A stretch of 37,960 bases of DNA from a virus (lineage: Duplodnaviria > Heunggongvirae > Uroviricota > Caudoviricetes). Shown here piece after piece: positions 3,620 to 37,960 of the stretch (position 1 is its first letter; each line of letters opens with the position of its first letter). The stretch lies in the IMG/VR virus record IMGVR_UViG_2588253749_000006; one strand, 5' to 3'. The notes below the pieces were generated by a model. That model saw only the letters and a list, made by a program, of their open reading frames with translations, was not told where the DNA came from and searched no databases. Made by a program: the position numbers and the translations under genes.

Positions 3620-4813
3620 TTAAACCCCTTTGACAACGTCAGCGTTGACCTGTGGAACCCCGATTTCAGCGGCCAGATTCATGGCGGCTATCACCAGGTT
3701 ACTGACGGCCAGCGGATACAACAGGCTGACCATATTTTTACGATGACTTCCCGGATTGCTCAGGCGGGCACGTATGGCATCCACTGCACTGGCGTCCATA
3801 ATGTCCGTCAGTTGTTTACCTGCCCGTTGCAGTTTGAACGTCAGAAACTCTTCAAGGTTATTGTCCAGAGGCAGAAGTTCGACCACCTCACAGCGCTGAA
3901 CGACTTCACGGACTTCCATATTGCGTTCAGACAGTTTTGTCGCCAGTTCCGGCTGGCCAATCAGCACGATGGACAGCAGTTTTTTGAAACCGGACTCCAG
4001 CTCAAAAAAGCGTTTGAGGTGTTTCAGTGTCGGAATGGGCAGACTGTGGGCCTCCTCAATCACCAGAACGTGGCTGAACCCCGCCTGGCTGCTGTCTTTC
4101 AGGACGCGATGCAACTGGCGAAAGCGGGCGTCCTGACTGCGTCTGATGCTTTCCAGTGGTGCGATGGTACTGATAATGGCTTCGGCAATAGCTGCTGCCT
4201 TCAGGGTTTTCCCTTTCACATCGTTGTCTTCCATAGCGATGATGTATGGCTCGATAACAATTACCGGCGCATTCTCGCGGTTGATACGTTCAGTCAGGTC
4301 GCGGCGCAGCGTGGATTTACCCGCACCGGACTCACCGATGACGGCCATAAACCCACCATGACGGGCTGTCTGGTACAACGCCTCACGCACGTAGCGAATG
4401 TCCGGGGTGGTGAACACATCATCAGAACCCTGCATGGCTTCGTCGGCGAACGGGTCACGGAAAAGACCAAACGCTTTTTTGGTTGCCGGGAATAACACCT
4501 GTTTTTTGAGTAACATATTCTCTTCCTCACTGAGGCTCGTTTTATCTGTGGTACCCGCTGTACGGGGAGTGGCCGCGCCCTGTACAGCATCAAAACTCTT
4601 CGCTGTATCAATCCCCTGACTTTCCAGCCAGGACGCAAGACGCCGGCGCACTTCTCCGGGGCTGGTGCGGGGCCACGCGTTATGATTCACAATCTGGGCC
4701 AGCGTGGCCTCAGAAACATCGACAGCTCTCGCCACCACCGCCTGTGGAATACGGGCCTCTTTCAGTTGCTGCTTCAGTACCAGCATGTTTCCCTCCTCAG
4801 TTGCCGTTAACAA
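3620..4813 (-). CDS. MuB-like AAA+ transposition ATPase
   Basis: Walker A GESGAGKST; N-terminal HTH-like region; immediately downstream of and overlapping the transposase gene; true start may be the internal MLVLKQQ. Confidence 0.75.
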   Translation of the reverse strand: MLTATEEGNMLVLKQQLKEARIPQAVVARAVDVSEATLAQIVNHNAWPRTSPGEVRRRLASWLESQGIDTAKSFDAVQGAATPRTAGTTDKTSLSEEENMLLKKQVLFPATKKAFGLFRDPFADEAMQGSDDVFTTPDIRYVREALYQTARHGGFMAVIGESGAGKSTLRRDLTERINRENAPVIVIEPYIIAMEDNDVKGKTLKAAAIAEAIISTIAPLESIRRSQDARFRQLHRVLKDSSQAGFSHVLVIEEAHSLPIPTLKHLKRFFELESGFKKLLSIVLIGQPELATKLSERNMEVREVVQRCEVVELLPLDNNLEEFLTFKLQRAGKQLTDIMDASAVDAIRARLSNPGSHRKNMVSLLYPLAVSNLVIAAMNLAAEIGVPQVNADVVKGV

Positions 4814-6566
4814 TGCTGATAACGCTGCTGCGGGCCGGCGTGGTCAGCGTGGCCATTACTTCATCCAGTGCGGCTTCCGGTACGCCGTCCGGGTACTGTG
4901 CCGTTAACTGGCGGTAATGTTCCGGCGTCCAGGTAAGGCCGTCGGCGCTGAACTTATCGCGTAGGGCTTTCGCGGCCTCCACATGAGTCATGGGACGTTG
5001 TTCAGTGCGCGGTCTGCGTACATCAGAGACCTGACCGCGCTTCGGTATACAGGCCGGAAGTGTGGCGTCATCAATATGTTTATACGGGTCAAGCCGCCCG
5101 CCGAACGGCAGCGCCTTCGCCTTGCGTGCGGCAGCTGCATCTGCGGCGTTGTCTGTACCGGTGACCAGCGCTTCGGTTTCTTTTGCCGCCGTCTGTGCCG
5201 GTGTTTCCGGCAGGGCTTTGTAACTTTCGCCAAATACCGCCGCGCCTTCAGCAAAGCCAAACTCGTTCTTTCTGACCTCTTCGACCAGGAAGAACGTCTC
5301 GTGGCCGTCCTCACCGGTCAGAACCACCTGTGCCACATCGCTGCGCCATGGGTTACGGGTAATCATCAGTTTTTCACCAACCAGTACGCCCGGTACCGTT
5401 GATACGTCAAATTCAGTGCCCCGGAACGAGACACGAAGTTTTGGCGTGACTTTGCGGAGTTCTGGTGTCGCCACAGCCAGTTCACGGCATACCTCAACGG
5501 AAGGCGCTTTTTTCAGCTGCTCAGCAGTAATCTTCAGCCAGATATCCGTGCGGGTTTTACCGTGGCGGCTGTGAACAGCTGTTGCGTTAAAGTGGCTACG
5601 CCATTTCGCGGCCAGCGCGTTGAGTTCTTCCAGACTGTGAACCGGCCGGAATTTCAGACCCGGCTCAAGCTTGCGTTCGATAATGTCACGCGCCTTTTCC
5701 ACCTGTCCGGTGGCGCGGGCGTTATGCGGCTTGTGCGCTATCAGGTCGATGCCCAGTGAGCGGCACATGTTTTTCGTCATACCCGCGGTGTTTGCCGAGC
5801 CGGGGTCGAGATAGAGTATTTTCGGCACGCCGTGCAGCACGTCTGCGCCGCCACGCTCCTGCATGGCGTTGATAAGCACAGAACACAGGTTCTCACCGGA
5901 TTCCGCACCCGTCACATACTCAACGTAAATCCAGCCGCTGGCATGGTCGGTAATCTCGTAACTCCACACGCGGTCACTGGCGATACGGGCAAGGTTAGCG
6001 GGTTTGTTCTTGTAGAACTTCGCGCTGTCCATCACCTGCAGCCCTTTGTGTCCATTGCTCAGGTAGTAAAGCGTGCAGAGCGAGGCATCAATCTGCCAGA
6101 CGTGATTGGGATGCAGACTGGCCACTTCGGTATGCGGCGCAGGGGCATCCAGTTGTTCCGGGTGCAGGCCATAGTTACGCAAGGCACGACTGATGGCATC
6201 TTCGGACAACGGGAAAAACTCACCGGTGGTTTCATCTGTTCTGCCTGCGGAGATAAAGCCGTTAGCCCGCAGGGTTTCCACTGCATCTGCGATGGAATAG
6301 AGACGCTTACCGTTCTTGCGGGTGGCCTCACGCAGTGTGGCAGATATCAGCGCGGCTTCGTCGCGGGTCAGGGCGCTGCGCCCGGCATCGGCGCGTTTTT
6401 TGCGTTTATCAGTCACAGATACCTCCTTCAGCTTGCGCAGCAGAGTGGCGCGGGACATGCCAAGTTCAGCACAGGCAGCGTCGTATATTGCACCGCGTTT
6501 ACCATGCCCCGCGTCACGTGCCGCGCGGGCGACATAAACCAGTCGTTCAGTCAGGGCAGCATTCAT
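4797..6566 (-). CDS. Mu A-type DDE transposase
   Basis: 589 aa; N-terminal HTH; HVWQIDAS and YLDPGS candidate DDE blocks; followed by the MuB-like gene. Confidence 0.8.
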   Translation of the reverse strand: MNAALTERLVYVARAARDAGHGKRGAIYDAACAELGMSRATLLRKLKEVSVTDKRKKRADAGRSALTRDEAALISATLREATRKNGKRLYSIADAVETLRANGFISAGRTDETTGEFFPLSEDAISRALRNYGLHPEQLDAPAPHTEVASLHPNHVWQIDASLCTLYYLSNGHKGLQVMDSAKFYKNKPANLARIASDRVWSYEITDHASGWIYVEYVTGAESGENLCSVLINAMQERGGADVLHGVPKILYLDPGSANTAGMTKNMCRSLGIDLIAHKPHNARATGQVEKARDIIERKLEPGLKFRPVHSLEELNALAAKWRSHFNATAVHSRHGKTRTDIWLKITAEQLKKAPSVEVCRELAVATPELRKVTPKLRVSFRGTEFDVSTVPGVLVGEKLMITRNPWRSDVAQVVLTGEDGHETFFLVEEVRKNEFGFAEGAAVFGESYKALPETPAQTAAKETEALVTGTDNAADAAAARKAKALPFGGRLDPYKHIDDATLPACIPKRGQVSDVRRPRTEQRPMTHVEAAKALRDKFSADGLTWTPEHYRQLTAQYPDGVPEAALDEVMATLTTPARSSVISIVNGN

Positions 6567-8041: not shown

Positions 8042-8130
8042 TGTTGTCTCCTTTGTTGATGCAATGATGTTTGTTTTATATGTGATAGATTATGAGAACT
8101 ATTGTTCTCATTGTCAATGAGGTTTATGTG
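8040..8130. promoter_or_regulatory. divergent early/repressor control region with operator-like palindrome
   Basis: Short AT-rich gap between divergent ner-like and repressor genes; perfect inverted repeat TGAGAACTATTGTTCTCA at about 8093..8110. Confidence 0.4.
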
Positions 8131-8553
8131 AATTTTGATTCTCTTTGCGCGTCGCGGTTCAAAGCTGAGCGTTCGCGGTTATCACTCAAGCAGGCTGAAG
8201 TAGCAGCCCTTTGTGGCGTTTCAAGAGAAATGTGGGGGAAATATGAACGAGGGGTTGCAGTTCCCGGAGGTGAGTTACTTGCAGCCTTTGCAAGAATTGG
8301 GGCCAACGTACAGTTCATTCTTACTGGGGAATCATCAGGTATAACTTTATCACGTGATGAAATGGAGTTACTTCAGCACTACCGGCAAGCACCGTTACAA
8401 GTCAAAGGTTCAGTTTTGTCGGCATTGACGACTGGCTCCTCCAGAGAACGGGCGGAACAGGTTATTCATGGAGATGTTCTGGGGAATGTTATCAAAGGTA
8501 ACGTAACCATAGGAACAGGTGGAATAATGAACAAAAATACAAAGAGAAAATGA
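8092..8553 (+). CDS. XRE-family HTH repressor (immunity repressor candidate)
   Basis: HTH LSLKQAEVAALCGVSREMWGKYERG; divergent from the ner-like gene; true start may be the GTG near 8128 because the annotated ATG overlaps a palindrome. Confidence 0.65.
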   Translation: MRTIVLIVNEVYVNFDSLCASRFKAERSRLSLKQAEVAALCGVSREMWGKYERGVAVPGGELLAAFARIGANVQFILTGESSGITLSRDEMELLQHYRQAPLQVKGSVLSALTTGSSRERAEQVIHGDVLGNVIKGNVTIGTGGIMNKNTKRK

Positions 8554-25400: not shown

Positions 25401-27866
25401 GTGGCCAGTGAATTTTCAGTCGGCGTCATTATTGGCGGCATTGTCGGGAGCAGCTTCCGCTCAGCCGTCAGTGGCACCCGACGCGCCCTTGATTCCCTTG
25501 GTGATACCTCCCGCCGTCTGCAGGAACGCCAGAATGCCTTAACCCGGGCAACAGAACGTTATGGTCAACTGGGTTCTTCCCGGATGCAGCATCTCAACAG
25601 CGAGTTGCTGCGGGTAAGCCGCACCATGGAGCAAATTGAACGTCAGCAGCGCCGTCTGTCAGCAGTATCAGCCACCGGTGATGCGTTGAAGGCTAACCGC
25701 CTGGCGCTCTATGGTCAGGGTGCAGAAACCTATGCTATTGGCAGAACGCTGGGCGCACCGGTCATGGCCTCGGTTAAACAATATGCCTCGTTTGAATCAC
25801 AGTTGCGGGATATCAGTGTCACAGGAGACCTGGATGCAAAACAGGAACGTGCAATTGGCCTGGCTATCAGACAGGCCTCGCTGAAGGTTAACCAACTGCA
25901 GGAGTCTCTGTTAGGGGGAGTCGGACAATTAGTTGCTGATGGTATGGCCCCCGAACGGGCAGCAACGTTTGCAGAGATGCTTGGAAAGACCGCTACAGCA
26001 ACCAAAGCCGATATGACCGACCTTGCCAAAATGACTTATGCCTTCAGCGATGCACTCAGAATCACTGATGCGAAAGAACTTGAACAGGCGTTTGGCATTG
26101 CGGCAACAGGAGCCAAACTTGGGTCATTTGAGCTGAAGGATATGGCAAAAGCATTACCCGGTATGGCGAAAGCCTTCGCTGCTCGTGGTATTTATGGAAA
26201 AGATGCGATTACCCAGATTGTTGCCAGTCTGGAGGTCGGTAAAGGTAGTGGCTCTGCAGAGGAAGCGGTCACCAATATGTCCAACTGGCTGGCAGCAATG
26301 GGCCGCGGAGATACCATCCAGAAATATGCTAAAGCCGGGGTGGATTACCAGGGGTCAATGCAGAATTACGTCGCTCAGGGTTTTTCGCAGTACGAAGCTT
26401 CACTGATGATTGCCAACCGTTTTATCGACAGTAAAGGCAAAGCGTTTTTGCAGCAATGGAAAGCTGCAGGAGCAAGAGGCGATCAGGAAGGTCAGCAGAA
26501 ACTCATGGAGTCATTTGGTCTGGCTGAGGTCTTTACCGATATTCAGACTGTCAACCATTTACTGTCAATGCGACAGGGCTGGGATAAATACCTTTCCAGT
26601 AAGCAGGAAATGAATGCTCCGGCTGCAATGTCTACCCTGGATAAGGATGCTGCAAAGCAGAATGATACGCTTGAAGGTCGCTGGCGCAGAATGCAGATCG
26701 GCTTTAATGATTCTGCTATCAGCATCGGGCAATCCTTGCGTCCGGCTTTGCTCCAGTTGGGTGAAACATTTATTCCTTTAATGGACAGCGTCGGCAAATG
26801 GATAGCGGCAAATCCGCAGCTCGTCAGCAGCACCATAAAGGTTGTGGGCGCATTACTCGCTTTCAGGATGGCCACTATCGGTCTCAAGTTTGGGCTGAAT
26901 CTCCTTATTTCCCCCTTTGTAAGCGTCTGGAAAAATGCTGTTTTACTTCGGGCCAACTGGCTTCGTCTGATGCTCGCACTGGGGGAAGGCGGTAAACTCC
27001 GCTGGCTGGTGACAGGCTTTGGTGCCGTCGCCAGAGGAACCAGAACACTGGGGGGGGTGCTCTCAGGGGGGCTGGTTCGCGGAATTATGAGCGCCGGGCG
27101 TGCCGTTCTCTGGATTGGCCGGGCGCTGCTGATGAATCCCATCGGTCTCGTTATCACCGCCGTCGCGGCAGCAGCTTACCTTATCTACCGCAACTGGGGC
27201 GCTGTCAGTAGCTGGTTTAAACAGCGCTGGGCTGACATTCAGGAAGCCTTTAACGGCGGCATCGCGGGAATTGGTAAACTGCTGGTTAACTGGTCTCCGG
27301 CAGGTCTGCTTTATAAAGCCTTTGCGGCTGCGCTGAAATATCTCGGCGTTGATTTGCCGGCGAAATTCACCGACTTCGGTGGTCATCTTATTGACGGGCT
27401 GATAAATGGCATCAGAAACAAATGGGCGTCACTGAAAACCAGCATAACCGGAATGGGTGACAGCATCAGTGACTGGTTCAGCGAAAAGCTGGGCATCCAT
27501 TCACCGAGTCGCGTGTTTATAGGCTTTGGTGACAATATCGCGCAGGGTGCCGCCATTGGCCTGCAACGGACCACTCCGCTTGCTGCACTGGCCGGGCAGC
27601 GCCTGGCCGCTGAAATGACACCGGATGTTCCCCGTATCCCGTCGCCGGAAATCATGGCTGCCGGATATTCAGGCCGTGGCGCAACTGCAACCGGCGGTGG
27701 AGCGTCTGGCGGTATCCAGGTCAGCTTTAATCCTCATTTTTTCCTCAATGGTAAGGAAACCGCAGCGCCTGCCGGGCTGGCTGGTGCCCTGAATATGAGC
27801 CTGCATGAGCTGGAAAAAATGCTGGAGCGTCTGCTGGCTCAGAAACAACGTAAGGAGTACAGCTGA
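25401..27866 (+). CDS. tail tape-measure protein
   Basis: 821 aa, GTG start with AGAGGA RBS, helical/Gly-rich, between the chaperone and N-like genes. Confidence 0.8.
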   Translation: MASEFSVGVIIGGIVGSSFRSAVSGTRRALDSLGDTSRRLQERQNALTRATERYGQLGSSRMQHLNSELLRVSRTMEQIERQQRRLSAVSATGDALKANRLALYGQGAETYAIGRTLGAPVMASVKQYASFESQLRDISVTGDLDAKQERAIGLAIRQASLKVNQLQESLLGGVGQLVADGMAPERAATFAEMLGKTATATKADMTDLAKMTYAFSDALRITDAKELEQAFGIAATGAKLGSFELKDMAKALPGMAKAFAARGIYGKDAITQIVASLEVGKGSGSAEEAVTNMSNWLAAMGRGDTIQKYAKAGVDYQGSMQNYVAQGFSQYEASLMIANRFIDSKGKAFLQQWKAAGARGDQEGQQKLMESFGLAEVFTDIQTVNHLLSMRQGWDKYLSSKQEMNAPAAMSTLDKDAAKQNDTLEGRWRRMQIGFNDSAISIGQSLRPALLQLGETFIPLMDSVGKWIAANPQLVSSTIKVVGALLAFRMATIGLKFGLNLLISPFVSVWKNAVLLRANWLRLMLALGEGGKLRWLVTGFGAVARGTRTLGGVLSGGLVRGIMSAGRAVLWIGRALLMNPIGLVITAVAAAAYLIYRNWGAVSSWFKQRWADIQEAFNGGIAGIGKLLVNWSPAGLLYKAFAAALKYLGVDLPAKFTDFGGHLIDGLINGIRNKWASLKTSITGMGDSISDWFSEKLGIHSPSRVFIGFGDNIAQGAAIGLQRTTPLAALAGQRLAAEMTPDVPRIPSPEIMAAGYSGRGATATGGGASGGIQVSFNPHFFLNGKETAAPAGLAGALNMSLHELEKMLERLLAQKQRKEYS

Positions 27867-28750
27867 TGTTTGCCGTACTGGGTGATATTGAGTTTGAACT
27901 GATTACCTACTGGGACGGCTTCGAGGCCACGTTTGGCGTCGATTATGCGGAGCATGCCCGCATCGAGGGTAAACCCGGCCTGCAGTTCGTCGGCGACAGG
28001 CTGGACGAAATCCAGATAAGCCTGGTCTTCCATCAGCATTATTGTGTGCCCGACGTGGAGCTGGCGAGAGTGCGAACAGCCATGAAGGCCCATCAGGCAC
28101 TGGCGCTGGTCTTCGGCAACGGTGACTATCGCGGCTGGTTCGTGATTACCGATGTGACCGCAACCAGCGAGCAGACAGACAGCACCGGTAACGTGCTGGC
28201 TGTCAGTGCCACCGTGTCTCTCCGGGAATACACCGGTGACCCGAAAAATCCTCTGCAACCGCCGGCAATACGCAGGCAGGTTCCCGGTGCCGGGGCCATA
28301 TCTGGTGCTGTTCCATCGCCTTCCGGGGTGGCGCAGTTCGTCCGTAACGGCGTCAACTATGCGAAACAGGCGCAGTCTGTACTCCAGACCACCATCAGTG
28401 CCGTTCGGGTGGCGCAGAAAATGAAGGGTAACCCCGTTGTCGCGCTGACCCGTGTGCCGGGACTGATGAGCGGACTGGGTAATATATCCGGCGCTCTGGG
28501 GAAAAGTATTCCGGCGTTTAATGTACTCTCTGAATCCATGCCCGATGCCATCAGTCTGGCCAGAACAGCCAGTGAGGCAGCCACGTATGTACAGCAGGCG
28601 CAGTCGGCGCTGAGTGGTGTGGACAAAAGAAATATTGCAGGTGCTCTGGATACCGTTTCCGGGCAGCTTAACGCCGCCGGCACAGCATTCAACCGCATGT
28701 CTCCGGGATTAAGTGCAATGGCCGCCAGAATACTGACGAGGAGTGTGTGA
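27866..28750 (+). CDS. DNA circularisation protein (Mu N-like)
   Basis: 294 aa after the tape measure; N-terminal MFAVLGDIEFELI ... resembles the Mu N family. Confidence 0.65.
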   Translation: MFAVLGDIEFELITYWDGFEATFGVDYAEHARIEGKPGLQFVGDRLDEIQISLVFHQHYCVPDVELARVRTAMKAHQALALVFGNGDYRGWFVITDVTATSEQTDSTGNVLAVSATVSLREYTGDPKNPLQPPAIRRQVPGAGAISGAVPSPSGVAQFVRNGVNYAKQAQSVLQTTISAVRVAQKMKGNPVVALTRVPGLMSGLGNISGALGKSIPAFNVLSESMPDAISLARTASEAATYVQQAQSALSGVDKRNIAGALDTVSGQLNAAGTAFNRMSPGLSAMAARILTRSV

Positions 28751-28962
28751 TGTTTCTTGAACATATTACCCGTGACGGAGAGCGCTGGGATTCGCTGGCA
28801 TGGCAGTACTACGGTGACCCGCTGGGCTATCCCCGGATTATTGCAGCCAATCCGCACGTGGCCATTACGCCAGTGCTGCCCTCCGGGTTGTTGTTACTGA
28901 TCCCGGTTATTGAGGCTGAAGATGCCCGTACAGAAGAGGATATTGCCCCATGGCTGAGATAA
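28747..28962 (+). CDS. tail protein X-like (small LysM-like)
   Basis: 71 aa; MFLEHITRDGERWDSLAWQYYGDP resembles P2 gpX. Confidence 0.55.
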   Translation: MMFLEHITRDGERWDSLAWQYYGDPLGYPRIIAANPHVAITPVLPSGLLLLIPVIEAEDARTEEDIAPWLR

Positions 28963-30104
28963 ACAGTACTGCGCAAGCCACATCAGCGTTAACCGGCGTC
29001 AGCGATGTGCTGACGCCGGTATTCACTCTGTGGTATTTGCAGAAAAACATCACCTCTGATATCGCGCCTTATGTCACCCGTGTGGTCTGGAGCGATAACA
29101 TCAAAAATGAGTCTGATACCATTGAGGTGGAGCTGGACGACACCGATGGCCGCTGGCTGGATAAGTGGTATCCGGGCAAGGGTGACACGCTGACGCTGAA
29201 AATGGGTTATCAGGGCGAGAAACTGCTGTCCTACGGTACATTCTCAATAGACGAGATCGAAGTGAGTTCGCCCGCGTCCGTTGTCGCTATCCGTGGGGTG
29301 GCCACCTCGGTTAACAGTGCTCTGCGGACTAAATCCAGCCGTGGTTTTGAGAACACCACGCTGGCAGCTGTTGCGGGTCGGATTGCCAGAAAGCACCGGC
29401 TGAAACTGGTGGGCAGCATTGAGTCCATCAGAATCGACCGGGTGACCCAGTATGCTGAAACCGACGTGGGTTTTCTGCGCCGGCTGGCCAGCGAGTATGG
29501 TTATGCAGTGAAAGTGGTCAGTGACCAGTTGATTTTTTCTCATCTGGCCACATTGCGCAGTCAGGAGCCGGTCAGGCAGTTAAAACCGCAGGATGTGGCC
29601 CACTTTTCCCTGCGTGACACCATCAACCGGGTCTATAAATCTGCAAAGGTAAAACACCAGAAAAGCAGCAGTAAAAAACTGATCGTCTACGAAGCTGATG
29701 GTGGTACCCGTGAAAGCGACAAAAAGCTCAAAGGCGGTAAGGTTACCAGCGCTGACTCACTTAAAGTTAACAGCCGCGTCAGCGACCCGGACAGTGCCCG
29801 GATTAAAGCGGATTCAGCACTGGCCAGACATAACGAATACCAGCAGAACGGCTCCCTGACGCTGACGGGAACGCCTCAACTGACAGCAGGCAACAAAATT
29901 GAACTGGTGGGCTTTGGACAATTATCCGGTCCATGGCTGATAATCACTGCCCGCCATGCGTTTGAGCGTAACAGCGGCTACACCACAGAGCTGGAAGTGG
30001 CACGGGGGCCAGTCACAAGAGGGAAAAAACAAAAAACTCAGAAACTCACGGTTTATCACCCGGATGGCAGTACATCGACGGTGATTAAGGAGAAGAAAAA
30101 ATGA
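28950..30104 (+). CDS. baseplate hub/tail protein (Mu P / P2 gpD-like)
   Basis: 384 aa; position between X-like and V-like genes. Confidence 0.65.
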   Translation: MAEINSTAQATSALTGVSDVLTPVFTLWYLQKNITSDIAPYVTRVVWSDNIKNESDTIEVELDDTDGRWLDKWYPGKGDTLTLKMGYQGEKLLSYGTFSIDEIEVSSPASVVAIRGVATSVNSALRTKSSRGFENTTLAAVAGRIARKHRLKLVGSIESIRIDRVTQYAETDVGFLRRLASEYGYAVKVVSDQLIFSHLATLRSQEPVRQLKPQDVAHFSLRDTINRVYKSAKVKHQKSSSKKLIVYEADGGTRESDKKLKGGKVTSADSLKVNSRVSDPDSARIKADSALARHNEYQQNGSLTLTGTPQLTAGNKIELVGFGQLSGPWLIITARHAFERNSGYTTELEVARGPVTRGKKQKTQKLTVYHPDGSTSTVIKEKKK

Positions 30105-30613
30105 CTGGTGTCACCCGCCAGGTCGGTACGGTCAGTGCCGTTGATGCCGACAGGGTTCAGGCCCGCGTTCGTCTGCCTGAATGCGATAATCTGCGCACAA
30201 ACTGGCTTAACGTGCTGCAGCGCAATACCCAGGATAACAAGGATTACTGGCTCCCTGACGTGGGGGAGCAGGTTGAGGTGCTGCTCGATGCCAACGGCGA
30301 GGATGGTGTTATTCTGGGCGCGGTGTACTCAGACGTCGATAAACCGCCGTTCGGTGATAAAAACGTCCGGGGCACGAAGTACGCTGATGGCGCGGAGTTC
30401 AGTTATGACCGCGCGACCCATACGCTGACGGTCAAAGGAGGTATCGAGCATGTGGTGATCGAGGTTGCAGTGGGTATTAGTCTGAAAGGGAAAACCATTG
30501 ATTTGACAGCTGACACTATCATGGTGAACGGCAATCTTGAAATCAAAGGGAGTACCCATGCGACTGGTAACATATTTGCAGATGGACAGAATTCCAATCA
30601 TCACTCTCACTAA
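30101..30613 (+). CDS. baseplate spike/assembly protein V-like (Mu gp45-like)
   Basis: 170 aa; N-terminal GTVSAVDADRVQARVRLPE ... typical of gpV. Confidence 0.7.
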   Translation: MTGVTRQVGTVSAVDADRVQARVRLPECDNLRTNWLNVLQRNTQDNKDYWLPDVGEQVEVLLDANGEDGVILGAVYSDVDKPPFGDKNVRGTKYADGAEFSYDRATHTLTVKGGIEHVVIEVAVGISLKGKTIDLTADTIMVNGNLEIKGSTHATGNIFADGQNSNHHSH

Positions 30614-30694
30614 TTTTTCAAGTATGTGACTCCATTTCCTCTCCCGCGGATATGATAGAATTTTTTAATTAACACTAATTTGGCGGGGACTTAA

Positions 30695-31411
30695 ATGCGG
30701 TTATCAAGATCCTTATGTAAAGTAGTTGGCGATGTCATTGCTAACTCAGGCTCTCATGCAGCTTTAGATACGTTATTTCTTACTTCGGGAGCACCAGGAA
30801 ACCCTCCGGCAGGATCTCATAGTACAAAATGGAAAGACTGGTTATTTCTTGCAGGGCAAGATCCAGATACAGATAGTCTGGCAGTTCTGGGCGGAGTAAT
30901 TGAGGAGTTTATGGATTTACCTCCAAAAGAAGGTACTCCCGAATATGCAGAATGGAAGGAAAAACGAGACAGAATTGAAGCTGTGTTACAAGAGAATGGA
31001 CTTAGATATTATCGTTTTGGTCGAGTGTTGCCTGAAGGCCACATCCCGTCACACAATATGGATTACCCAGAGACCATAATTACTTATCAACAGCCAGTAA
31101 TGCCAGAAAAAGTTGAGAACTTACTGGAAAGGCTGGTCAAAGGCTTACAGCGAGCAATGCATCCACTTACTCATAGGCGAAAAGGAAGCCAGTCATTATC
31201 TTTTAGCAATGAATATGACGTGCAAGACCTTCTCCATGCATTGCTCAGACCATGGGTTCAGGACATCCGCCCAGAAGAGTTTACTCCAAGTTACGCTGGT
31301 TCAAGTACTCGAATGGATTTTTTGTTACCTGCGCATAAATTAGTACTGGAAACCAAAATTGTTCGTGATCGTTCTCATGCAAAGAAAATCGGCGATGAAC
31401 TTATTATCGAT
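30695..31411 (+). pseudogene. 5' part of an AT-rich cargo gene interrupted by IS2; C-terminal region resembles a PD-(D/E)xK nuclease core
   Basis: The track ORF's stop is the first three bases (TAG) of the IS2 left end; reading frame resumes at 32748; candidate catalytic D in RMDFLL and ExK in LVLETK. Confidence 0.6.
31407..31411. repeat. IS2 target-site duplication, left copy (TCGAT)
   Basis: Identical 5-mer abuts both IS2 ends. Confidence 0.85.
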
Positions 31412-31502
31412 TAGACTGGCCCCCTGAATCTCCAGACAACCAGTATCACTTAAATAAGTGATAGTCTTAATACTAGTTTTTAGACTAGTCATTGGAGAAC
31501 AG

Positions 31503-31868
31503 ATGATTGATGTCTTAGGGCCGGAGAAACGCAGACGGCGTACCACACAGGAAAAGATCGCAATTGTTCAGCAGAGCTTTGAACCGGGGATGACGGTCTC
31601 CCTCGTTGCCCGGCAACATGGTGTAGCAGCCAGCCAGTTATTTCTCTGGCGTAAGCAATACCAGGAAGGAAGTCTTACTGCTGTCGCCGCCGGAGAACAG
31701 GTTGTTCCTGCCTCTGAACTTGCTGCCGCCATGAAGCAGATTAAAGAACTCCAGCGCCTGCTCGGCAAGAAAACGATGGAAAATGAACTCCTCAAAGAAG
31801 CCGTTGAATATGGACGGGCAAAAAAGTGGATAGCGCACGCGCCCTTATTGCCCGGGGATGGGGAGTAA
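31503..31868 (+). CDS. insC: IS2 OrfA (InsC)
   Basis: 121 aa starting [24 protein letters not shown], recognised as IS2 InsC. Confidence 0.9.
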
Positions 31869-32731
31869 GCTTAGTCAGCCGTTGTCTCCGGGTGTCGCGT
31901 GCGCAGTTGCACGTCATTCTCAGACGAACCGATGACTGGATGGATGGCCGCCGCAGTCGTCACACTGATGATACGGATGTGCTTCTCCGTATACACCATG
32001 TTATCGGAGAGCTGCCCACGTATGGTTATCGTCGGGTATGGGCGCTGCTTCGCAGACAGGCAGAACTTGATGGTATGCCTGCGATCAATGCCAAACGTGT
32101 TTACCGGATCATGCGCCAGAATGCGCTGTTGCTTGAGCGAAAACCTGCTGTACCGCCATCGAAACGGGCACATACAGGCAGAGTGGCCGTGAAAGAAAGC
32201 AATCAGCGATGGTGCTCTGACGGGTTCGAGTTCTGCTGTGATAACGGAGAGAGACTGCGTGTCACGTTCGCGCTGGACTGCTGTGATCGTGAGGCACTGC
32301 ACTGGGCGGTGACTACCGGCGGCTTCAACAGTGAAACAGTACAGGACGTCATGCTGGGAGCGGTGGAACGCCGCTTCGGCAACGATCTTCCGTCGTCTCC
32401 AGTGGAGTGGCTGACGGATAATGGTTCATGCTACCGGGCTAATGAAACACGCCAGTTCGCCCGGATGTTGGGACTTGAACCGAAGAACACGGCGGTGCGG
32501 AGTCCGGAGAGTAACGGAATAGCAGAGAGCTTCGTGAAAACGATAAAGCGTGACTACATCAGTATCATGCCCAAACCAGACGGGTTAACGGCAGCAAAGA
32601 ACCTTGCAGAGGCGTTCGAGCATTATAACGAATGGCATCCGCATAGTGCGCTGGGTTATCGCTCGCCACGGGAATATCTGCGGCAGCGGGCTTGTAATGG
32701 GTTAAGTGATAACAGATGTCTGGAAATATAG
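31826..32731 (+). CDS. insD: IS2 OrfB (InsD) transposase catalytic part
   Basis: 301 aa recognised as IS2 InsD; overlaps InsC in the -1 frame at the A6G site. Confidence 0.9.
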
Positions 32732-32742
32732 GGGCAAATCCA

Positions 32743-32747
32743 TCGAT
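32743..32747. repeat. IS2 target-site duplication, right copy (TCGAT)
   Basis: Identical to 31407..31411. Confidence 0.85.
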
Positions 32748-32906
32748 ATAGAGCATTATCGTCGGCACTCTGATTGCAAAAATCTCTGGTGTGTCATCTA
32801 CGATCCGAACCAGCTTATTACTAATTCTGAGGGGCTGAAATCTGATCTTGAGGGGAAGAGAGTTTCTAAAGACGGAGAACTTATCGTCAAGGTTTTCGTA
32901 ATTTAA
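32748..32906 (+). pseudogene. 3' part of the IS2-interrupted cargo gene
   Basis: In frame with 30695..31411 once IS2 and one TCGAT copy are removed (about 291 aa reconstructed). Confidence 0.55.
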
Positions 32907-32929
32907 CAAACGTATCAATAACTCCTTTT

Positions 32930-32952
32930 TAAATCCCTTTAATATCGTTCTT
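32930..32952 (+). promoter_or_regulatory. candidate late-promoter activator site upstream of the baseplate operon
   Basis: CCTTTAATATCGT about 30-45 bp upstream of the gpW-like start; the same motif recurs near 11457 and 24826. Confidence 0.35.
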
Positions 32953-32977
32953 TTCTTACTGGGGCAATACTGCCCCC

Positions 32978-33325
32978 ATGAAAACGACCTCAGTATTCTG
33001 GCAACCGGCTCTGCAGGCTCCCGGCGAAATCGTCCGGGGGCTGGATGATATCCAGCAGTCCATCCAGATCATCCTGCGGACTCCCCGCGGCAGCGACCCG
33101 CATCGCCCAGAGTTCGGCAGCAATCTGCACCTTTATATCGACTGGCCTGTCGACCGGGCCATTCCGCATGTGGTTCGCGAATCCGTCGATGCCATCAGGC
33201 GCTGGGAACCCCGCTGCCAGCTTATGTCGGTTAAACCCGCCGTCGACGGCGAACATCTTACGCTCCGGGTGAGCTGGAAAGGCTCAGACGGACAACCCCG
33301 TACTCAGGAACTGCTATGGCGCTGA
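32978..33325 (+). CDS. baseplate wedge protein (GPW/gp25-like)
   Basis: 115 aa; GLDDIQQSIQIILRTPRGSDPHRPEFGSNLHLYID resembles the GPW/gp25 family. Confidence 0.7.
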   Translation: MKTTSVFWQPALQAPGEIVRGLDDIQQSIQIILRTPRGSDPHRPEFGSNLHLYIDWPVDRAIPHVVRESVDAIRRWEPRCQLMSVKPAVDGEHLTLRVSWKGSDGQPRTQELLWR

Positions 33326-34419
33326 CAGAACCCGATTTTATTGAACTCGATGCCGATAAAATCACGGCAGAAATGATTGCGAAATATGAAGCGGATACCG
33401 GCAAAACGTTGTACCCGGCACAGGCAGAACGTCTGCTGATAGATCTGTGGGCCTATCGCGAAATGCTGGTCAGGGTGGCGGTACAGGAGGCGGCGAAGCT
33501 GAATCTGGTCGCCTTTTCCCGGGAGCCGATGATTGATTACCTCGGAGAACTGGTTGGTGTATACCGCCTTCCCGCGCAGCCTGCCACCACCACACTTCAG
33601 TTCTCTGTGGATGAGGCACTGGCCATTGATGTGCTGATCCCGGCAGGCACCCGCGTCAGCGCTTCCGACAGCGTGATTTTTGCCACCGATACAGATGTAG
33701 TGCTGAAGGCCGGTTTGCAACTGGTCAATGCCCCTGCCACCTGTACTGAGCCGGGTACCTCTGGCAACGGCTGGCAACCGGCTCAGGTCAGTCAGCTGCT
33801 TGATGAGATTGATAACGTTGACCTGCTGGTGACCAATCTGACGGCCAGCACTGGCGGTTCAGAGCAGGAAGACAATGACCGACTCCGGGAGCGTATCAGG
33901 CTGGCCCCGGAGTCATTCACCAATGCCGGAAGCCGTGGTGCATACCGTTTTCATGCCATGGGGGCGCATCCCAGTATTGTCGACGTCGCTGTTCTTTCTC
34001 CCGTTCCCGGTACTGTCGAGCTGTATCCACTGCTCAGCACTGGTCTGCCAGACAGCAGTATCCTCACTCTGGTAGAGAGTTTCTGTTCTGACGAAAAAGT
34101 CAGACCACTCACTGATACCGTGCGGGCTAAAACACCTGTTCAGGTGGATTACACCATTGAAGCCAGGATTACGATCTATCGTGATCAGGATGCAATGTCG
34201 GTAAAGGACAACGCTAACAGCGCCATACAGAACTGGGTGGCATCACGTGCCGCCACGCTGGGACGCGATATTGTCCCCAGCCAGATTATCAGTGCATTGT
34301 CCGTTTCCGGGGGGTACCAGGTTGAACTGGTGACACCGGCACTGCGGGTGGTTGCAGAAAACGAATGGGCAAACTGTACGGCAATCACTCTTAACGTGAC
34401 AGGGGTGTCCGATGGCTGA
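33316..34419 (+). CDS. baseplate J-like protein
   Basis: 367 aa following the W-like gene. Confidence 0.75.
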   Translation: MALTEPDFIELDADKITAEMIAKYEADTGKTLYPAQAERLLIDLWAYREMLVRVAVQEAAKLNLVAFSREPMIDYLGELVGVYRLPAQPATTTLQFSVDEALAIDVLIPAGTRVSASDSVIFATDTDVVLKAGLQLVNAPATCTEPGTSGNGWQPAQVSQLLDEIDNVDLLVTNLTASTGGSEQEDNDRLRERIRLAPESFTNAGSRGAYRFHAMGAHPSIVDVAVLSPVPGTVELYPLLSTGLPDSSILTLVESFCSDEKVRPLTDTVRAKTPVQVDYTIEARITIYRDQDAMSVKDNANSAIQNWVASRAATLGRDIVPSQIISALSVSGGYQVELVTPALRVVAENEWANCTAITLNVTGVSDG

Positions 34420-34990
34420 GGCGCTACGACTACCGCCACCGCTTGAGGGTGATATCAGTCTCAAAACGCTGGGAAGACTGGCCGAACGGCTGGATAACAT
34501 CGACCTGAGCGTACTGATGGTCTGTCTCGTCGATATCGTCGACAGTTCCGCGCTGCCATGGCTGGGCGAGCAGTTCTCGTTGTTCGGCGATGGCTGGGAA
34601 CTGGCGGAATCGGACGATGTACGCCGCATGCTTATCAAATCCGCTATCGAGCTACACCGCTATAAAGGAACGCCGTGGTCAATCCGGGAAATTATCCGCC
34701 GTTTTGGCTTTGGCGAAGTAGAGCTGATAGAAGGTACGGGGCAGATCGGCTACGACGGTAAACACAGTTACAACGGACTTTTCGTCCATGGCGATGCACA
34801 AGCCTGGGCAGTCTATCGGGTCATCCTTCAACAGCCCATCACTAATGATCAGGCAGCGCTGTTACGTCAGACGCTCGCTGCCTTTGCTCCGGCTCGCTGC
34901 CATCTGGCAAGCCTGGAATATCAGTCTGTCGCCATTCGATACAACAGTACTACCCGTTATGACGGTAGTTACAACCACGGGAGCAGTTAA
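34412..34990 (+). CDS. tail protein (P2 gpI / Mu gp48-like)
   Basis: 192 aa between the J-like and fibre genes. Confidence 0.6.
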   Translation: MAEALRLPPPLEGDISLKTLGRLAERLDNIDLSVLMVCLVDIVDSSALPWLGEQFSLFGDGWELAESDDVRRMLIKSAIELHRYKGTPWSIREIIRRFGFGEVELIEGTGQIGYDGKHSYNGLFVHGDAQAWAVYRVILQQPITNDQAALLRQTLAAFAPARCHLASLEYQSVAIRYNSTTRYDGSYNHGSS

Positions 34991-34992
34991 TT

Positions 34993-35937
34993 ATGGCAAA
35001 TCTACCTGAAACCCCACAGTGGGAAGACGGCATCTACCAGATTGAGGTCTCTGACCCCGTTCTGGGCGGGCCTGACGGAATTTCTAACCGTCAGGGTAAA
35101 CAACTGGCCAGCCGCACGCTGTACCTGAAGCAACAGGTTGAAAAAGGCGGGGCTGACCTTGCGAAACACATCGCGGCAGCAGACCCGCATGCCCAGTATG
35201 CACCGAAAGCCAGTCCGGCATTCACCGGCACACCAACAGCACCTACACCTGCAAATGGCGATAACAGCAAAAAGCTGGCGACGACGGAGTTTGTGGCCAA
35301 AGCACTTGCGGCGCTTGCAGGCAGCGCCCCTGAGACACTGGATACGCTTAAAGAGCTGGCTGACGCTCTCGGTAATGATCCAAACTTTGCGACTACGGTA
35401 CTGAACAAGCTGGCGGAAAAGCTGGCTAAAGACCAGAACGGCGCAGATATTCCTGATCCTGCGCTGTTTGTCAAAAACCTTGGTTTGGGAGAAGGTACTC
35501 CAGCTATTGGCGTTCCGTTCTTCTGGCCCTCCGCGGCAATGCCAAATACTGTAATCGACAGCTGGTCCAGTATGGTGTTTTTGAAGTTCAACGGGGCGAA
35601 ATTTTCTGCCACTGATTACCCTGTGCTGGCGAAAGTGTTTCCTTCGCTGGTATTACCTGAAGCCCGCGGTGATTTCATTCGTATCTGGGATGACGGGCGA
35701 GGTGTAGACGGTGGTCGCGAATTATTAAGCTGGCAGGCAGCTACAAACTTTTCTCAGTTTGCCGGGAATATAGGCGATGGTGCGGGCCACGCAATTAATT
35801 TTCATGATGGTATCGCCGGAAATCAGCCAGGATTTTCACGATTTAATTTCACCAGTAACTCTGTGGGTGATGGTGTGAATTTTGTTGCCGTCAGACCGCG
35901 AAATATTGCATTTAACTTTCTGGTGAGGGCTAAATGA
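34993..35937 (+). CDS. tail fibre protein; constant N-terminal part plus currently expressed variable C-terminal part
   Basis: 314 aa; the recombination site lies in-frame at codons 159-167, so everything downstream is inside the invertible segment. Confidence 0.75.
   Translation: MANLPETPQWEDGIYQIEVSDPVLGGPDGISNRQGKQLASRTLYLKQQVEKGGADLAKHIAAADPHAQYAPKASPAFTGTPTAPTPANGDNSKKLATTEFVAKALAALAGSAPETLDTLKELADALGNDPNFATTVLNKLAEKLAKDQNGADIPDPALFVKNLGLGEGTPAIGVPFFWPSAAMPNTVIDSWSSMVFLKFNGAKFSATDYPVLAKVFPSLVLPEARGDFIRIWDDGRGVDGGRELLSWQAATNFSQFAGNIGDGAGHAINFHDGIAGNQPGFSRFNFTSNSVGDGVNFVAVRPRNIAFNFLVRAK
35468..35493. repeat. left invertase crossover site (gix/hix-like), inside the tail fibre gene
   Basis: TTGTCAAAAACCTTGGTTTGGGAGAA; 21 of 26 positions identical to the reverse complement of the right site, with a perfect 14-bp core TTGGTTTGGGAGAA. 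Confidence 0.6.
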
Positions 35938-36530
35938 TGACCCCAATTTTTGATGAAAATGGACTGGCTACAGTGCCGGGCGATATGCGTTGTTTTTATT
36001 ATGATGCAGTAACGTATGAATATACGGGCTGGTCTGATGAATATATTAATACTGGTGTAAGTATGCCCGCCTGTTCCACTGGTATTGACCCGGGCGAAAA
36101 CATTCCGGGAAAAGTGGCAGTATTTACGGGTAAGGGATGGAGCCATGAAGAAGACCATCGCAATGAGACTGTTTACTCAACAGAAAATGGTGCAACTGTT
36201 ACAGTGGATTATATCGGTGCCATCAAAGACGGTTATGTCACGCTTTCACCGTTAACGCCATACGATAAATGGGATGGTGAGAAATGGGTGACAGATTCTG
36301 AGGCACAACACGGTGCCGCAGTAGAAGCGGCAGAAGCACAGCGCCAGTCACTTATTGATGCAGCAATGGCTTCCATTAGTCTGATTCAGCTGAAATTACG
36401 GGCCGGGCGGAAGCTGATGCAGGCAGAGACCTCCCGACTTAACACTGTGCTGGATTACATTGACGCGGTGACGGCAACAGATACCAGCACCGCGCCGGAT
36501 GTCATCTGGCCTGAACTGCCGGAGGAGTAG
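35934..36530 (+). CDS. tail fibre assembly chaperone (Tfa/U-like), expressed orientation
   Basis: 198 aa directly after the fibre gene; C-terminal DYIDAVTATDTSTAPDVIWPELP. Confidence 0.7.
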   Translation: MMTPIFDENGLATVPGDMRCFYYDAVTYEYTGWSDEYINTGVSMPACSTGIDPGENIPGKVAVFTGKGWSHEEDHRNETVYSTENGATVTVDYIGAIKDGYVTLSPLTPYDKWDGEKWVTDSEAQHGAAVEAAEAQRQSLIDAAMASISLIQLKLRAGRKLMQAETSRLNTVLDYIDAVTATDTSTAPDVIWPELPEE

Positions 36531-36942
36531 GCCATTCAATATCTGGCGCACTGGAAGTATCGACCAGCTCCAGTGCGTCCAGATAATCCAGCCACAAATT
36601 ATATTGCGCCAGTTCCTCACCTTTCAGACGACCAATAGCCGCTTTACCAGCCCATTGTTTACTGTTCATATAATCGTTGGCCTGATTAATCAATTGCTGC
36701 TTTTTCAGTTCGGCTGCAGCAATCTGTTCCTCATGTGTTGGTGGTGGAATTTCAGACCATGCAGGAAAACCATTTTCTCCAGCGATACGGATTTTTCCTT
36801 TCGGCGGTAATCCGGAAAACTCAATATACACTTGCTCATCAACTTCAACAGCATCATCTGGCCATGAGTCAGCTTGCGTGTAATCCTCTTTCATCTCCAA
36901 GGGATAGAAAGAGTTTGTAGTCGCGGAATATATGTAATTCAT
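36502..36942 (-). CDS. alternative tail fibre assembly chaperone (U'-like), silent orientation
   Basis: 146 aa convergent with and overlapping the Tfa gene; C-terminal DYLDALELVDTSSAPDIEWPTPP. Confidence 0.7.
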   Translation of the reverse strand: MNYIYSATTNSFYPLEMKEDYTQADSWPDDAVEVDEQVYIEFSGLPPKGKIRIAGENGFPAWSEIPPPTHEEQIAAAELKKQQLINQANDYMNSKQWAGKAAIGRLKGEELAQYNLWLDYLDALELVDTSSAPDIEWPTPPAVQAR

Positions 36943-36968
36943 TTTTCACTCCATAAAGTTAAAAGAAA

Positions 36969-37316
36969 TTAACACCCTAATGCGAAAAATGAAGCACCGA
37001 TACCGGGTACGCCTGCTCTGGAAATAAATTTCACCGGGTCCTGGTTATAACCGGCACAAGCTATATAGCCAACATTTGCACTGCCGGGAGTGTAATCCTG
37101 AGTTGCAAATACCCGCAGACATCTATTCGGAAATGCAATCGGAAAATAGGTTACTGTGTCCTGAGACGTCAGCGAAACATCAATTGGCCCCCATTGAATA
37201 ATTAAACCGGATGGCAATTTTTGATATCCAGTACCTGAAACAGAAAGCGTGAAGCTACCCATATCAGGTATCTGATTCGTCCCTGTCCCCACATTCCTTT
37301 TTGCCGCTTCTCCCAA
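36969..37316 (-). CDS. alternative tail fibre variable C-terminal cassette (Sv'-like), promoterless
   Basis: 115-aa frame opening at the right crossover site, in the same codon phase (GGT TTG GGA GAA) as the fibre gene at the left site. Confidence 0.6.
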
Positions 37317-37333
37317 ACCAACGTTTTCGTCTT
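37308..37333. repeat. right invertase crossover site (gix/hix-like)
   Basis: TTCTCCCAAACCAACGTTTTCGTCTT, about 55 bp upstream of the invertase start. Confidence 0.6.
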
Positions 37334-37387: not shown

Positions 37388-37960
37388 ATGCAAATTGGCT
37401 ACATTCGTGTGTCAACAAATGACCAGAATACAGATTTACAACGAAACGCACTGAACTGCGCAGGATGTGAACTGATTTTTGAGGATAAAATCAGCGGAAC
37501 AAAGTCAGCCCGACCGGGATTGAAAAAGCTGCTCAGAACGTTATCAGAAGGAGATACGCTCGTTGTCTGGAAGCTGGATAGGCTGGGCAGAAGCATGAAA
37601 CACCTTATCACTCTTATTGAGGAACTGCGGGGAAAAGGGGGTAATTTCCGTAGTCTTACAGACAGCATTGATACGTCAACACCCATGGGACGTTTCTTTT
37701 TTCACGTCATGGGGGCTTTAGCGGAAATGGAGCGCGAATTAATAGTTGAACGAACACTGGCCGGACTTGAGGCAGCACGTGCACAGGGGCGTATTGGCGG
37801 ACGCCGTCCGAAACTGACAAAAGAGCAACATGAACAAATAGCAAGGCTGATCAAAAATGGCTATAGCAGGAAACAGTTGGCAATTATTTACGATATCGGT
37901 ATATCGACGATTTATCGTTATCACCCTGTAGAGGAACTCCAAACTCAAGCTAAGTTGTAA
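37388..37960 (+). CDS. serine DNA invertase (Gin/Pin/Hin/Cin family)
   Basis: 190 aa from the ATG with AAGAGGA RBS inside track ORF 37301..37960; MQIGYIRVSTNDQNTDLQRNAL ... closely resembles e14 Pin / Mu Gin as I recall them. Confidence 0.9.
   Translation: MQIGYIRVSTNDQNTDLQRNALNCAGCELIFEDKISGTKSARPGLKKLLRTLSEGDTLVVWKLDRLGRSMKHLITLIEELRGKGGNFRSLTDSIDTSTPMGRFFFHVMGALAEMERELIVERTLAGLEAARAQGRIGGRRPKLTKEQHEQIARLIKNGYSRKQLAIIYDIGISTIYRYHPVEELQTQAKL

Follow-up and report, generated by a model that had tools for sequence, protein, structure and literature searches.

A probable invertase-driven tail-fibre switch of the Gin/Pin family at the right end of a BcepMu-like Escherichia coli prophage

The right end of a BcepMu-like transposable prophage very probably carries a two-site, invertase-driven tail-fibre switch of the Gin/Pin/Cin/Hin family. 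The whole stretch of DNA that we analysed (37,960 nucleotides, hereafter the window) contains a fibre gene with a variable C-terminus, a silent alternative C-terminus on the opposite strand, a tail-fibre assembly chaperone gene for each, two inverted crossover sites and a serine invertase gene. Both exact orientation states of the invertible segment exist naturally, and the fibre reading frame is open in each of them.

Genes and crossover sites

The features of the element, in window positions, are:

34993-35937, plus strand: tail-fibre gene in its current orientation, an ORF of 314 aa
34993..35481, plus strand: constant N-terminal fibre part (Sc, 163 codons), outside the invertible segment
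35468-35493, plus strand: left 26-bp crossover site, TTGTCAAAAACC TT GGTTTGGGAGAA, inside the fibre reading frame
35482..35937, plus strand: variable C-terminus expressed in the current orientation (Sv, StfE type, 151 aa), with the end ...RPRNIAFNFLVRAK
35934..36530, plus strand: tail-fibre assembly chaperone (198 aa) serving Sv; the start overlaps the fibre stop codon
36502..36942, minus strand: another tail-fibre assembly chaperone (146 aa), convergent with the preceding gene, with a 29-nt overlap
36969..37319, minus strand: silent alternative C-terminus (Sv', 116 aa, gp53-like; Pfam Gp53-like_C, E 4.8e-19)
37308-37333, minus strand: right 26-bp crossover site, on the plus strand TTCTCCCAAACC AA CGTTTTCGTCTT
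37388-37960, plus strand: Pin/Gin-family serine DNA invertase (190 aa), the last prophage gene, with Resolvase and HTH_7 domains
37409..37472, unstranded: putative recombinational enhancer dependent on Fis (sis equivalent), within the invertase gene at its 5' end

The fibre ORF matches phrog_3100 'tail fiber protein' (E 4e-119), and Pfam gave no match for the whole 314-aa fibre. Homology to its constant part, at 99.8-100% in many E. coli genomes, ends at query position 502/503 (window 35494/35495), which is the inner end of the left site. The last ~60 aa of Sc are 34% identical to the constant part of Mu S, and the two share the junction motif KD.NGADIP...F..NLGL.E. Beyond the site, Sv matches phrog_523 and phrog_6459 (tail collar fibre protein), and its DNA is ~90% identical to the side-tail-fibre end of the lambdoid phages mEp213 and mEp043. 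Sv and Sv' are unrelated in sequence and a different chaperone adjoins each. The 198-aa chaperone belongs to Pfam Caudo_TAP (E 1.4e-26) and phrog_105, the 146-aa chaperone to Caudo_TAP (E 2.3e-38) and phrog_188, and the two are 34% identical to one another in their C-terminal parts only. No NCBIfam family scored above its cut-off for any of the five proteins. RefSeq annotates the silent cassette as a pseudogene and the fibre as a 'hypothetical protein'.

The two sites lie in inverted orientation and are identical at 21 of 26 positions. Core and inner half-site agree over 15 nt and the outer halves at 7 of 12. With the form xxxxxxAAACC, the half-sites are similar to those of Mu gix and e14 pix. 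The central dinucleotide is asymmetric and the same in both sites (TT on the left, AA on the plus strand of the right), with 1,840 nt from core to core. With up to one mismatch allowed, the window has exactly two occurrences of the 21-nt arm, one per strand, and 100 shuffles produced no match to it; the core motif AAACSWWSGTTT is found only at the two sites, against 0.01 occurrences expected. A multi-site, Min-like shufflon of the p15B kind was rejected, since the window holds only these two matches to either motif.

Codon 163 (CTT, Leu) of the fibre gene coincides with the left core. When the segment is inverted there in silico, the result is an uninterrupted 279-aa fibre that reads ...FVKNLGLGE|AAKRNVG... 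across the junction. The Sv' cassette itself has no ATG, an in-frame TAA lies three codons outside the core, and no promoter-like site reading into Sv' was found on the minus strand.

An earlier note on this DNA had described two inverted 26-bp sites bracketing about 1.84 kb, a left site in frame with the fibre and an alternative cassette in the same codon phase; the repeat search and the 279-aa fusion bear this out. It had also placed one C-terminus with its chaperone on one strand and a second chaperone and promoterless C-terminus on the other, an arrangement with which the open reading frames, the Pfam domains and the lack of start signals for Sv' agree.

Relationship to known inversion systems

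The closest counterpart is the P segment of e14 (stfP-tfaP / tfaE-stfE-pinE), in which the genes follow a baseplate J gene and a P2 gpI-like gene (ymfQ in e14) in the same order, and which shares the core and inner half-site (TT GGTTTGGGAGAA) and the convergent 29-nt chaperone overlap. Its two tips are of the same two types. The earlier note had suggested aligning the variable cassettes with known fibres: Sv proved 42% identical to e14 StfE, Sv' matched the variable portion of e14 StfP at 35% identity, and neither had significant similarity to Mu S or S'. The 198-aa chaperone is 60% identical to TfaE, and the 146-aa chaperone 61% identical to TfaP over its C-terminal 96 aa. The two elements differ in that e14 is lambdoid-like and the window's host element is a BcepMu-like transposable prophage, and the constant N-terminus of e14 StfP is unrelated to Sc. 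The StfE-type tip is expressed in the window's orientation, whereas it is silent in K-12. Unlike K-12 e14, the window lacks a short ATG-initiated frame outside the right site, so that no StfE or StfE2-type product is expected, and no mcrA gene comes after the invertase as it does in e14.

The Mu G segment (S-U / U'-S'-gin) occupies the same place, behind the baseplate genes (gp46, gp47 and gp48 in Mu) at the right end of what is likewise a transposable myovirus, and follows the same logic: a constant Sc joined to Sv or Sv', a chaperone for each, and an invertase directly after. The junction peptides are also alike (KDRNGADIP..LFIQNLGLQE in Mu, KDQNGADIP..LFVKNLGLGE in the window). The Mu segment, however, is ~3 kb long, its core is TC rather than TT and its half-sites also differ, and its variable parts measure ~335 and ~320 aa against 151 and 116 aa here. 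The earlier note had called the window's element Mu G-segment-like. That description holds for the logic of the switch and for the Gin-family invertase, but the sites and cassettes are closer to e14 P and the prophage is BcepMu-like.

Sites of 26 bp are also found in the Hin/hix flagellar switch of Salmonella, the mechanistic model for invertases that depend on Fis and an enhancer. Its invertase gene contains an enhancer in the 5' end, ~100 bp away from the closer site (PMC3798978). The window's invertase retains the basic residues of helix B and those through which Hin contacts Fis. Hin differs in flipping a promoter rather than a coding-sequence cassette, and has no link to a phage fibre.

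The invertase and its putative enhancer

The invertase gene begins 55 nt from the right site. Its product matches Pfam Resolvase (E 1e-49) and HTH_7 as well as phrog_125 DNA invertase, and is 81.0% identical to K-12 e14 PinE and 70.5% identical to Mu Gin. Among solved structures its best match is Gin (PDB, E 6e-89), with Gin structures 4m6f and 3uj3 both matched at E about 1e-88. The close resemblance to e14 Pin and Mu Gin that the earlier note had recognised is thus upheld. The catalytic Ser9 and residues R7, R42, D64, R65 and R68 are shared with 117-120 of 120 homologues. The residues that mark out Fis/enhancer-dependent invertases, known from Hin as K47, K/R48, K/R51, Q151, R154 and L155 (PMC3798978), are all present as K46, K47, R50, Q150, R153 and L154 (Hin numbering minus 1).

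The Hin enhancer spans 65 bp, lies ~100 bp from hixL and carries a Fis site at each end (PMC3798978). The corresponding part of the window's invertase gene, nt 22-85, is 84-86% identical to gin and pinE (84% for Gin's enhancer-equivalent stretch), compared with 65-67% for nt 151-540. It contains two 15-mers of the form G-N13-C, at gene nt 22-36 and 71-85, that are conserved in all five invertase genes compared. Their centres are 49 nt apart, with 95.5 bp between the right core and the centre of the proximal 15-mer; both match the Fis consensus weakly. Scoring by G-N13-C and the GNNYRWWWWWYRNNC consensus gave mediocre values that did not discriminate, and Fis sites are not definable in this way by consensus alone; the enhancer is therefore placed by homology and spacing only. 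By analogy with its relatives, the switch is probably dependent on Fis and on this enhancer.

Both orientations occur in public genomes

The 279-aa fibre predicted for the flipped state is exactly the protein WP_123001317.1. The protein look-up recorded it on 7 contigs, and 14 contigs were read; the 314-aa form is found on 43 contigs. In WP_123001317.1, and in seven loci that we numbered L009-L015, Sv' is fused in frame to Sc. One of these loci, draft contig L010 (GCA_003981475.1), equals the window flipped in silico over 5,295 nt with a single mismatch, which falls in the baseplate J gene, outside the switch. The two hybrid sites agree exactly with the prediction, the contig begins within the IS2 that the window also carries, and its flank on the ppiD side is identical at 400 of 400 nt to strain 504211.

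Further pairs of genomes show the same rearrangement. The sister prophages of WS3294A and ATCC 43896 have both 26-bp sites identical to the window's; their flanks agree without mismatch, and the 1,815-nt segments are exact reverse complements of each other. Substrains BH100 and BH100N are isogenic and carry a segment 96% identical to the window's; over 8,355 nt they differ solely by an exact inversion of 1,816 nt. The earlier note had proposed looking for both orientations and would have counted a single one against the switch; that outcome is excluded by the exact flipped fibre and contig L010 in public data.

Complete genomes gave a narrower picture. Five of them are 100% identical to the window (503025, 503440, 504211, 503829 and TW10573), and all five have the window's orientation. 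Neither a flipped 3-kb query nor a flipped left-junction query found the flipped exact allele among 5,426 complete E. coli genomes, where they met only relatives with other gp53-like cassettes; the flipped allele came to light only through the exact protein look-up in a larger collection. Agreement of five in five is weak evidence: if the isolates were independent and the two orientations equally frequent it would arise once in 16, and the isolates could be clonal.

The uniform orientation nevertheless has a place in one alternative, in which the switch is intact while its own invertase is crippled by a V85G substitution, flips being made in trans by other Pin-family invertases or dating from before the mutation. 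Position 85 is glycine in the window's enzyme and in none of its 120 nearest homologue cluster representatives (V in 66, I in 51, A in 2, S in 1); it is I in Gin and V in gamma-delta resolvase. Since G85 is unique, activity of the invertase is unproven. The five complete genomes, all carrying the G85 allele, hold 2-4 further related places, and flipping in trans by other Pin-like invertases of the same genome is documented for e14, whose P segment is inverted in K-12 by each of PinE, PinQ and PinR (PMC12529663). Against this, small residues (A, S) do occur at position 85 and the catalytic and Fis-contact residues are all intact. Furthermore, in L010 the flipped state occurs alongside an identical G85 allele, with the IS2 edge and ppiD insertion site also matching the window's, and L009 is flipped with G85 in a different genomic context; flipping thus happened in G85-carrying lineages. 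We consider a crippled invertase unlikely, if not negligibly so, and rejected G85 as proof of an inactive enzyme. Under the preferred reading of an invertase-driven switch, the element's own invertase presumably did the flipping.

The host prophage

After the invertase gene comes ppiD, at a distance of 214 nt, in the position where Mu has com and mom after gin; the prophage lacks both of these genes. Its transposase and ATPase are encoded on the minus strand, placing the early region opposite in strand to the late genes, unlike in Mu. The nearest phages are PhiKM (the nearest named relative, classified as Bcepmuvirus), Klebsiella KP12 and Phi06_2974 B. We examined positions 26000-34674 of the PhiKM record for a fibre region; they contain the early region of a permuted partial record and hold no information on the switch. 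Assignment to phage Mu proper (Muvirus) was rejected, given ppiD rather than com and mom after the invertase, the three nearest phages named above and the minus-strand transposase and ATPase genes.

An IS2 copy at 31416-32741 lies in the tail operon, upstream of the baseplate and fibre genes. It may be polar, in which case the fibre may go unexpressed from the window's copy. This insertion bears on a second alternative, that the prophage is probably defective and that the switch is kept by the host for a purpose other than phage host range, as in e14. Such a role has been reported for the homologous e14 segment, inversion of which produces the gp53-like chimera StfE2 that blocks adsorption of phage T2 (PMC12529663), and the window's silent cassette shares its gp53-like character with the C-terminal part of StfE2. 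However, the TAA three codons outside the core and the lack of a short ATG-initiated frame leave no room for a small StfE2-like chimera, and the only fusion partner for the silent cassette is the full 163-aa fibre N-terminus. Long intact reading frames elsewhere in the prophage (transposase, portal, sheath, tape measure, baseplate) likewise speak against a decayed element, and IS-free copies of the same prophage at other sites fit a recently active phage. Retention of the switch purely for the host is, on this evidence, very unlikely. Equally doubtful, in our judgement, is a joint reading in which V85G is a slowed variant of the invertase that sets the switching rate and a benefit to the host maintains the switch, through fibres or tail-like particles that might act against competing bacteria or phages.

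A further idea is that the inverted repeat arose by chance or results from the shared NLGLGE coding motif, without site-specific inversion. It draws on the identical 15 nt encoding LGLGE, a peptide common to many fibres, but it is refuted by the inversion between WS3294A and ATCC 43896 and by L010, and with no match in the 100 shuffles, the predicted core-crossover junctions present in independent assemblies and a Pin-type invertase gene beside the right site, we dismiss it as next to impossible.

Discussion

We propose the following mechanism for the switch, by analogy with characterised members of the family. The 190-aa serine invertase would bind both 26-bp sites, assisted by host Fis acting on the enhancer in the 5' end of the invertase's own gene. 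It would then cut at the central TT/AA and turn the strands through 180 degrees, so that the 1.84-kb segment is inverted, while the promoter, the ribosome-binding site and the first 163 fibre codons would remain outside the segment, unmoved. In the current orientation Sc is fused to the StfE-type tip, followed by the TfaE-type chaperone, and in the other orientation to the gp53-like tip, followed by the TfaP-type chaperone. A population of lysogens could in this way give rise to virions, or to particles derived from tails, that each have one or the other of two receptor specificities. Inversion would then be expected to change host range, as the earlier note had also suggested; unrelated tips are what such a receptor change would require.

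Since Mu G, P1 C and e14 P, the switching of tail fibres by invertases has been textbook material. A switch of this type is already well known, and the present example adds little to general biology. It is, however, another case in which unrelated phages have exchanged fibre tips in mosaic fashion, with an e14-type P cassette grafted onto a BcepMu-like prophage. Both states of one exact allele could moreover be demonstrated from public assemblies alone. The finding is relevant to annotation, given the labels that the silent cassette and the fibre carry in RefSeq. Finally, the prophage is widespread in enterotoxigenic and other E. coli, and for phage typing or therapy directed against such strains it may matter that prophage particles may come in two receptor specificities.

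Results

The two 26-bp inverted sites that an earlier note had placed around a segment of about 1.84 kb were both located exactly there. Open reading frames and domains between them likewise agree with its description of a fibre C-terminus and chaperone and, on the opposite strand, a second chaperone and a second C-terminus.

Features of the invertible segment and its flank (positions in the window)
34993-35937, +: tail-fibre gene (314 aa; left core at codon 163)
35468-35493, +: left crossover site, TTGTCAAAAACC TT GGTTTGGGAGAA
35934-36530, +: Caudo_TAP chaperone (198 aa; start overlaps the fibre stop codon)
36502-36942, -: Caudo_TAP chaperone (146 aa)
36969-37319, -: gp53-like C-terminal cassette, silent (116 aa)
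37308-37333: right crossover site, + strand reading TTCTCCCAAACC AA CGTTTTCGTCTT
37388-37960, +: serine invertase gene (190 aa; Resolvase and HTH_7)

The sites are inverted relative to each other, 1,840 nt apart core to core, and identical at 21 of 26 positions; 15 nt identical between them correspond to the central dinucleotide and inner half-site, and the outer half-sites agree at 7 of 12 positions. A 21-nt arm occurs twice in the whole 37,960-nt window, both times at the sites (0 matches across 100 dinucleotide-preserving shuffles of the window), and the motif AAACSWWSGTTT is also confined to them. This restriction to two places defines a simple two-site arrangement; a multi-site shufflon was rejected, as the window holds two sites only. 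An internal 18-nt inverted repeat, I4 (36449-36466 / 36575-36592), is not a crossover site and stems from a C-terminal motif common to both chaperones (LDYIDAV / LDYLDAL).

Sequence comparison revealed no relationship between the two fibre tips, and likeness between the chaperones is restricted to their C-terminal part. The silent cassette lacks an ATG, has an in-frame TAA three codons outside the core, and showed no promoter-like site reading into it in a consensus scan, in keeping with its earlier description as promoterless. Inversion in silico at the central dinucleotide produces an uninterrupted 279-aa fibre, bearing out the proposed in-frame fusion of the constant N-terminus to the alternative tip. 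RefSeq calls the silent cassette (36969-37316; 8070-8429 in the public locus L001) a pseudogene, 'incomplete; missing N-terminus', and names the 314-aa fibre 'hypothetical protein'; both labels are artefacts of annotating an invertible cassette. The two chaperone genes converge and share 29 nt (36502-36530), as do tfaP and tfaE in e14.

Both orientations exist in public assemblies, the earlier note having regarded detection of only one, together with an inactive invertase, as evidence against a switch. The predicted flipped fibre is matched residue for residue by WP_123001317.1 (7 contigs recorded at protein look-up, 14 contigs read); the 314-aa form is found on 43 contigs. One flipped locus, L010 (GCA_003981475.1, contig PNSO01000028.1), aligns colinearly with the window flipped in silico across 5,295 nt with a single mismatch, inside the baseplate J gene. 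Both of its hybrid sites are as predicted for crossover at the core, its invertase is the identical G85 allele, its contig begins within the same IS2, and the 400 nt 3' of its invertase match without a difference the ppiD flank of strain 504211, one of the five complete genomes identical to the window. L010 represents this very prophage copy in its other orientation. The metagenome contig L009, which lacks IS2 and lies in another genomic context, is also flipped and carries G85.

Related prophages add further pairs. In the sister prophages of WS3294A (adjoining gsk) and ATCC 43896 (adjoining rcsC), both 26-bp sites are those of the window and the invertase differs solely by G85V; their flanks agree at every position, and the 1,815-nt segment of one is the exact reverse complement of the other's. 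A different prophage, with pinE and a segment sharing 96% identity with that of the window, is found in the isogenic substrains BH100 and BH100N, which across 8,355 nt are distinguished solely by an exact 1,816-nt inversion. All five complete genomes identical to the window share its orientation, and the flipped form of this exact allele was absent among the complete genomes searched. This is weak evidence against flipping: these isolates may be clonally related, and assemblies show whichever state is in the majority.

The invertase closely resembles e14 PinE of K-12 (81.0% identity) and Mu Gin (70.5%), as had been noted, and its best solved-structure matches are Gin structures (4m6f, 3uj3). 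It keeps Ser9 and the conserved Arg and Asp residues. The residues reported as specific to Fis/enhancer-dependent invertases (Hin K47, K/R48, K/R51, Q151, R154, L155; McLean et al., PMC3798978) are all kept, as K46, K47, R50, Q150, R153 and L154. Residue 85 (codon 37640-37642) is Gly; apart from it, the only rare residue lies in the variable C-terminal tail. Among the 120 closest cluster representatives, position 85 is V (66), I (51), A (2) or S (1); it is Ile in Gin and Val in gamma-delta resolvase. The sister allele with Val85 is on 825 contigs and the G85 allele on 63.

Identity to gin and pinE is 84-86% for nucleotides 22-85 of the invertase gene (window 37409-37472) but 65-67% for nt 151-540. 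The former stretch contains two G-N13-C 15-mers conserved across the five invertase genes compared. The centre of the proximal 15-mer lies 95.5 bp from the right core, and the placement of the stretch fits the Hin enhancer, which is 65 bp long and ~100 bp from hixL (PMC3798978). We regard a Fis-dependent enhancer at this place as putative, because the Fis consensus scores are weak.

The window represents an entire BcepMu-like transposable prophage.

Other prophage features (positions in the window)
3620-4813, -: AAA_22 ATPase
4797-6566, -: rve-type transposase
31416-32741: IS2 (flanks 30695-31414 and 32706-32906), inserted in a DpnII/MboI-like accessory gene

Transposase and ATPase are encoded on one strand and the late genes on the other; Mu-type portal, sheath, tape measure, gpD-like hub, gp25-like, baseplate J and P2 gpI-like genes are also present. 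Among named phages, the prophage is closest to PhiKM (94.5% identity, classified Bcepmuvirus), Klebsiella phage KP12 and Phi06_2974 B. Chromosomal sites vary by strain (ppiD, gsk, rcsC), as a transposing phage would lead one to expect. Nearly identical copies (loci L006, L007, L009, L010) lie beside these genes or within another prophage, which fits recent transposition. The invertase is the last gene, its stop codon ending at the window's last base, 37960. Since ppiD follows after 214 nt (L001 9062-9274), the right prophage end must lie there, beyond the window; com and mom are absent.

The accessory gene disrupted by IS2 encodes a restriction-endonuclease domain and is an uninterrupted 291-aa ORF in WS3294A, L009 and the public loci L011-L013. 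Because it sits between the baseplate V-like and gp25-like genes, IS2 immediately precedes the baseplate and fibre genes and may be polar on them. Strain 504211 has an extra IS100 just upstream.

Discussion

Both what the earlier note observed and how it read the locus are confirmed, and its label, 'Mu G-segment-like', can be refined. The neighbouring invertase may be the enzyme that flips the segment, perhaps with Fis and the putative enhancer; G85 may alter the rate, and the two fibres may differ in host range. The switch follows the logic of the Mu G segment and shares a conserved junction peptide with Mu S, whereas its sites, the two tip types and the two chaperones all belong to the e14 P type, including the core TT and inner half-site GGTTTGGGAGAA. 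In the cassette alignment that the note had proposed, run against Mu and e14 fibres, the variable parts had no significant similarity to Mu S/S' and were StfE/StfP-like: one tip shares 42% identity with StfE, the other 35% with the variable part of StfP, and chaperone identity to TfaE and TfaP is 60-61%. A short ATG-initiated frame outside the right site, as in K-12 e14, is missing from the window; an StfE2-type chimera, reported in e14 to block phage T2 adsorption (PMC12529663), therefore cannot form.

The expressed tip and chaperone start (35468-36070) share ~90% DNA identity with the side-tail-fibre end of the lambdoid siphoviruses mEp213 and mEp043, reflecting the usual mosaicism of fibre tips across phage types. 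For part of the chaperone region, identity to phage P2 is 88%. Tail-fibre genes are among the families enriched for programmed inversions in systematic surveys (PMC9881135), and the switch described here belongs to a well-known kind of invertible fibre switch.
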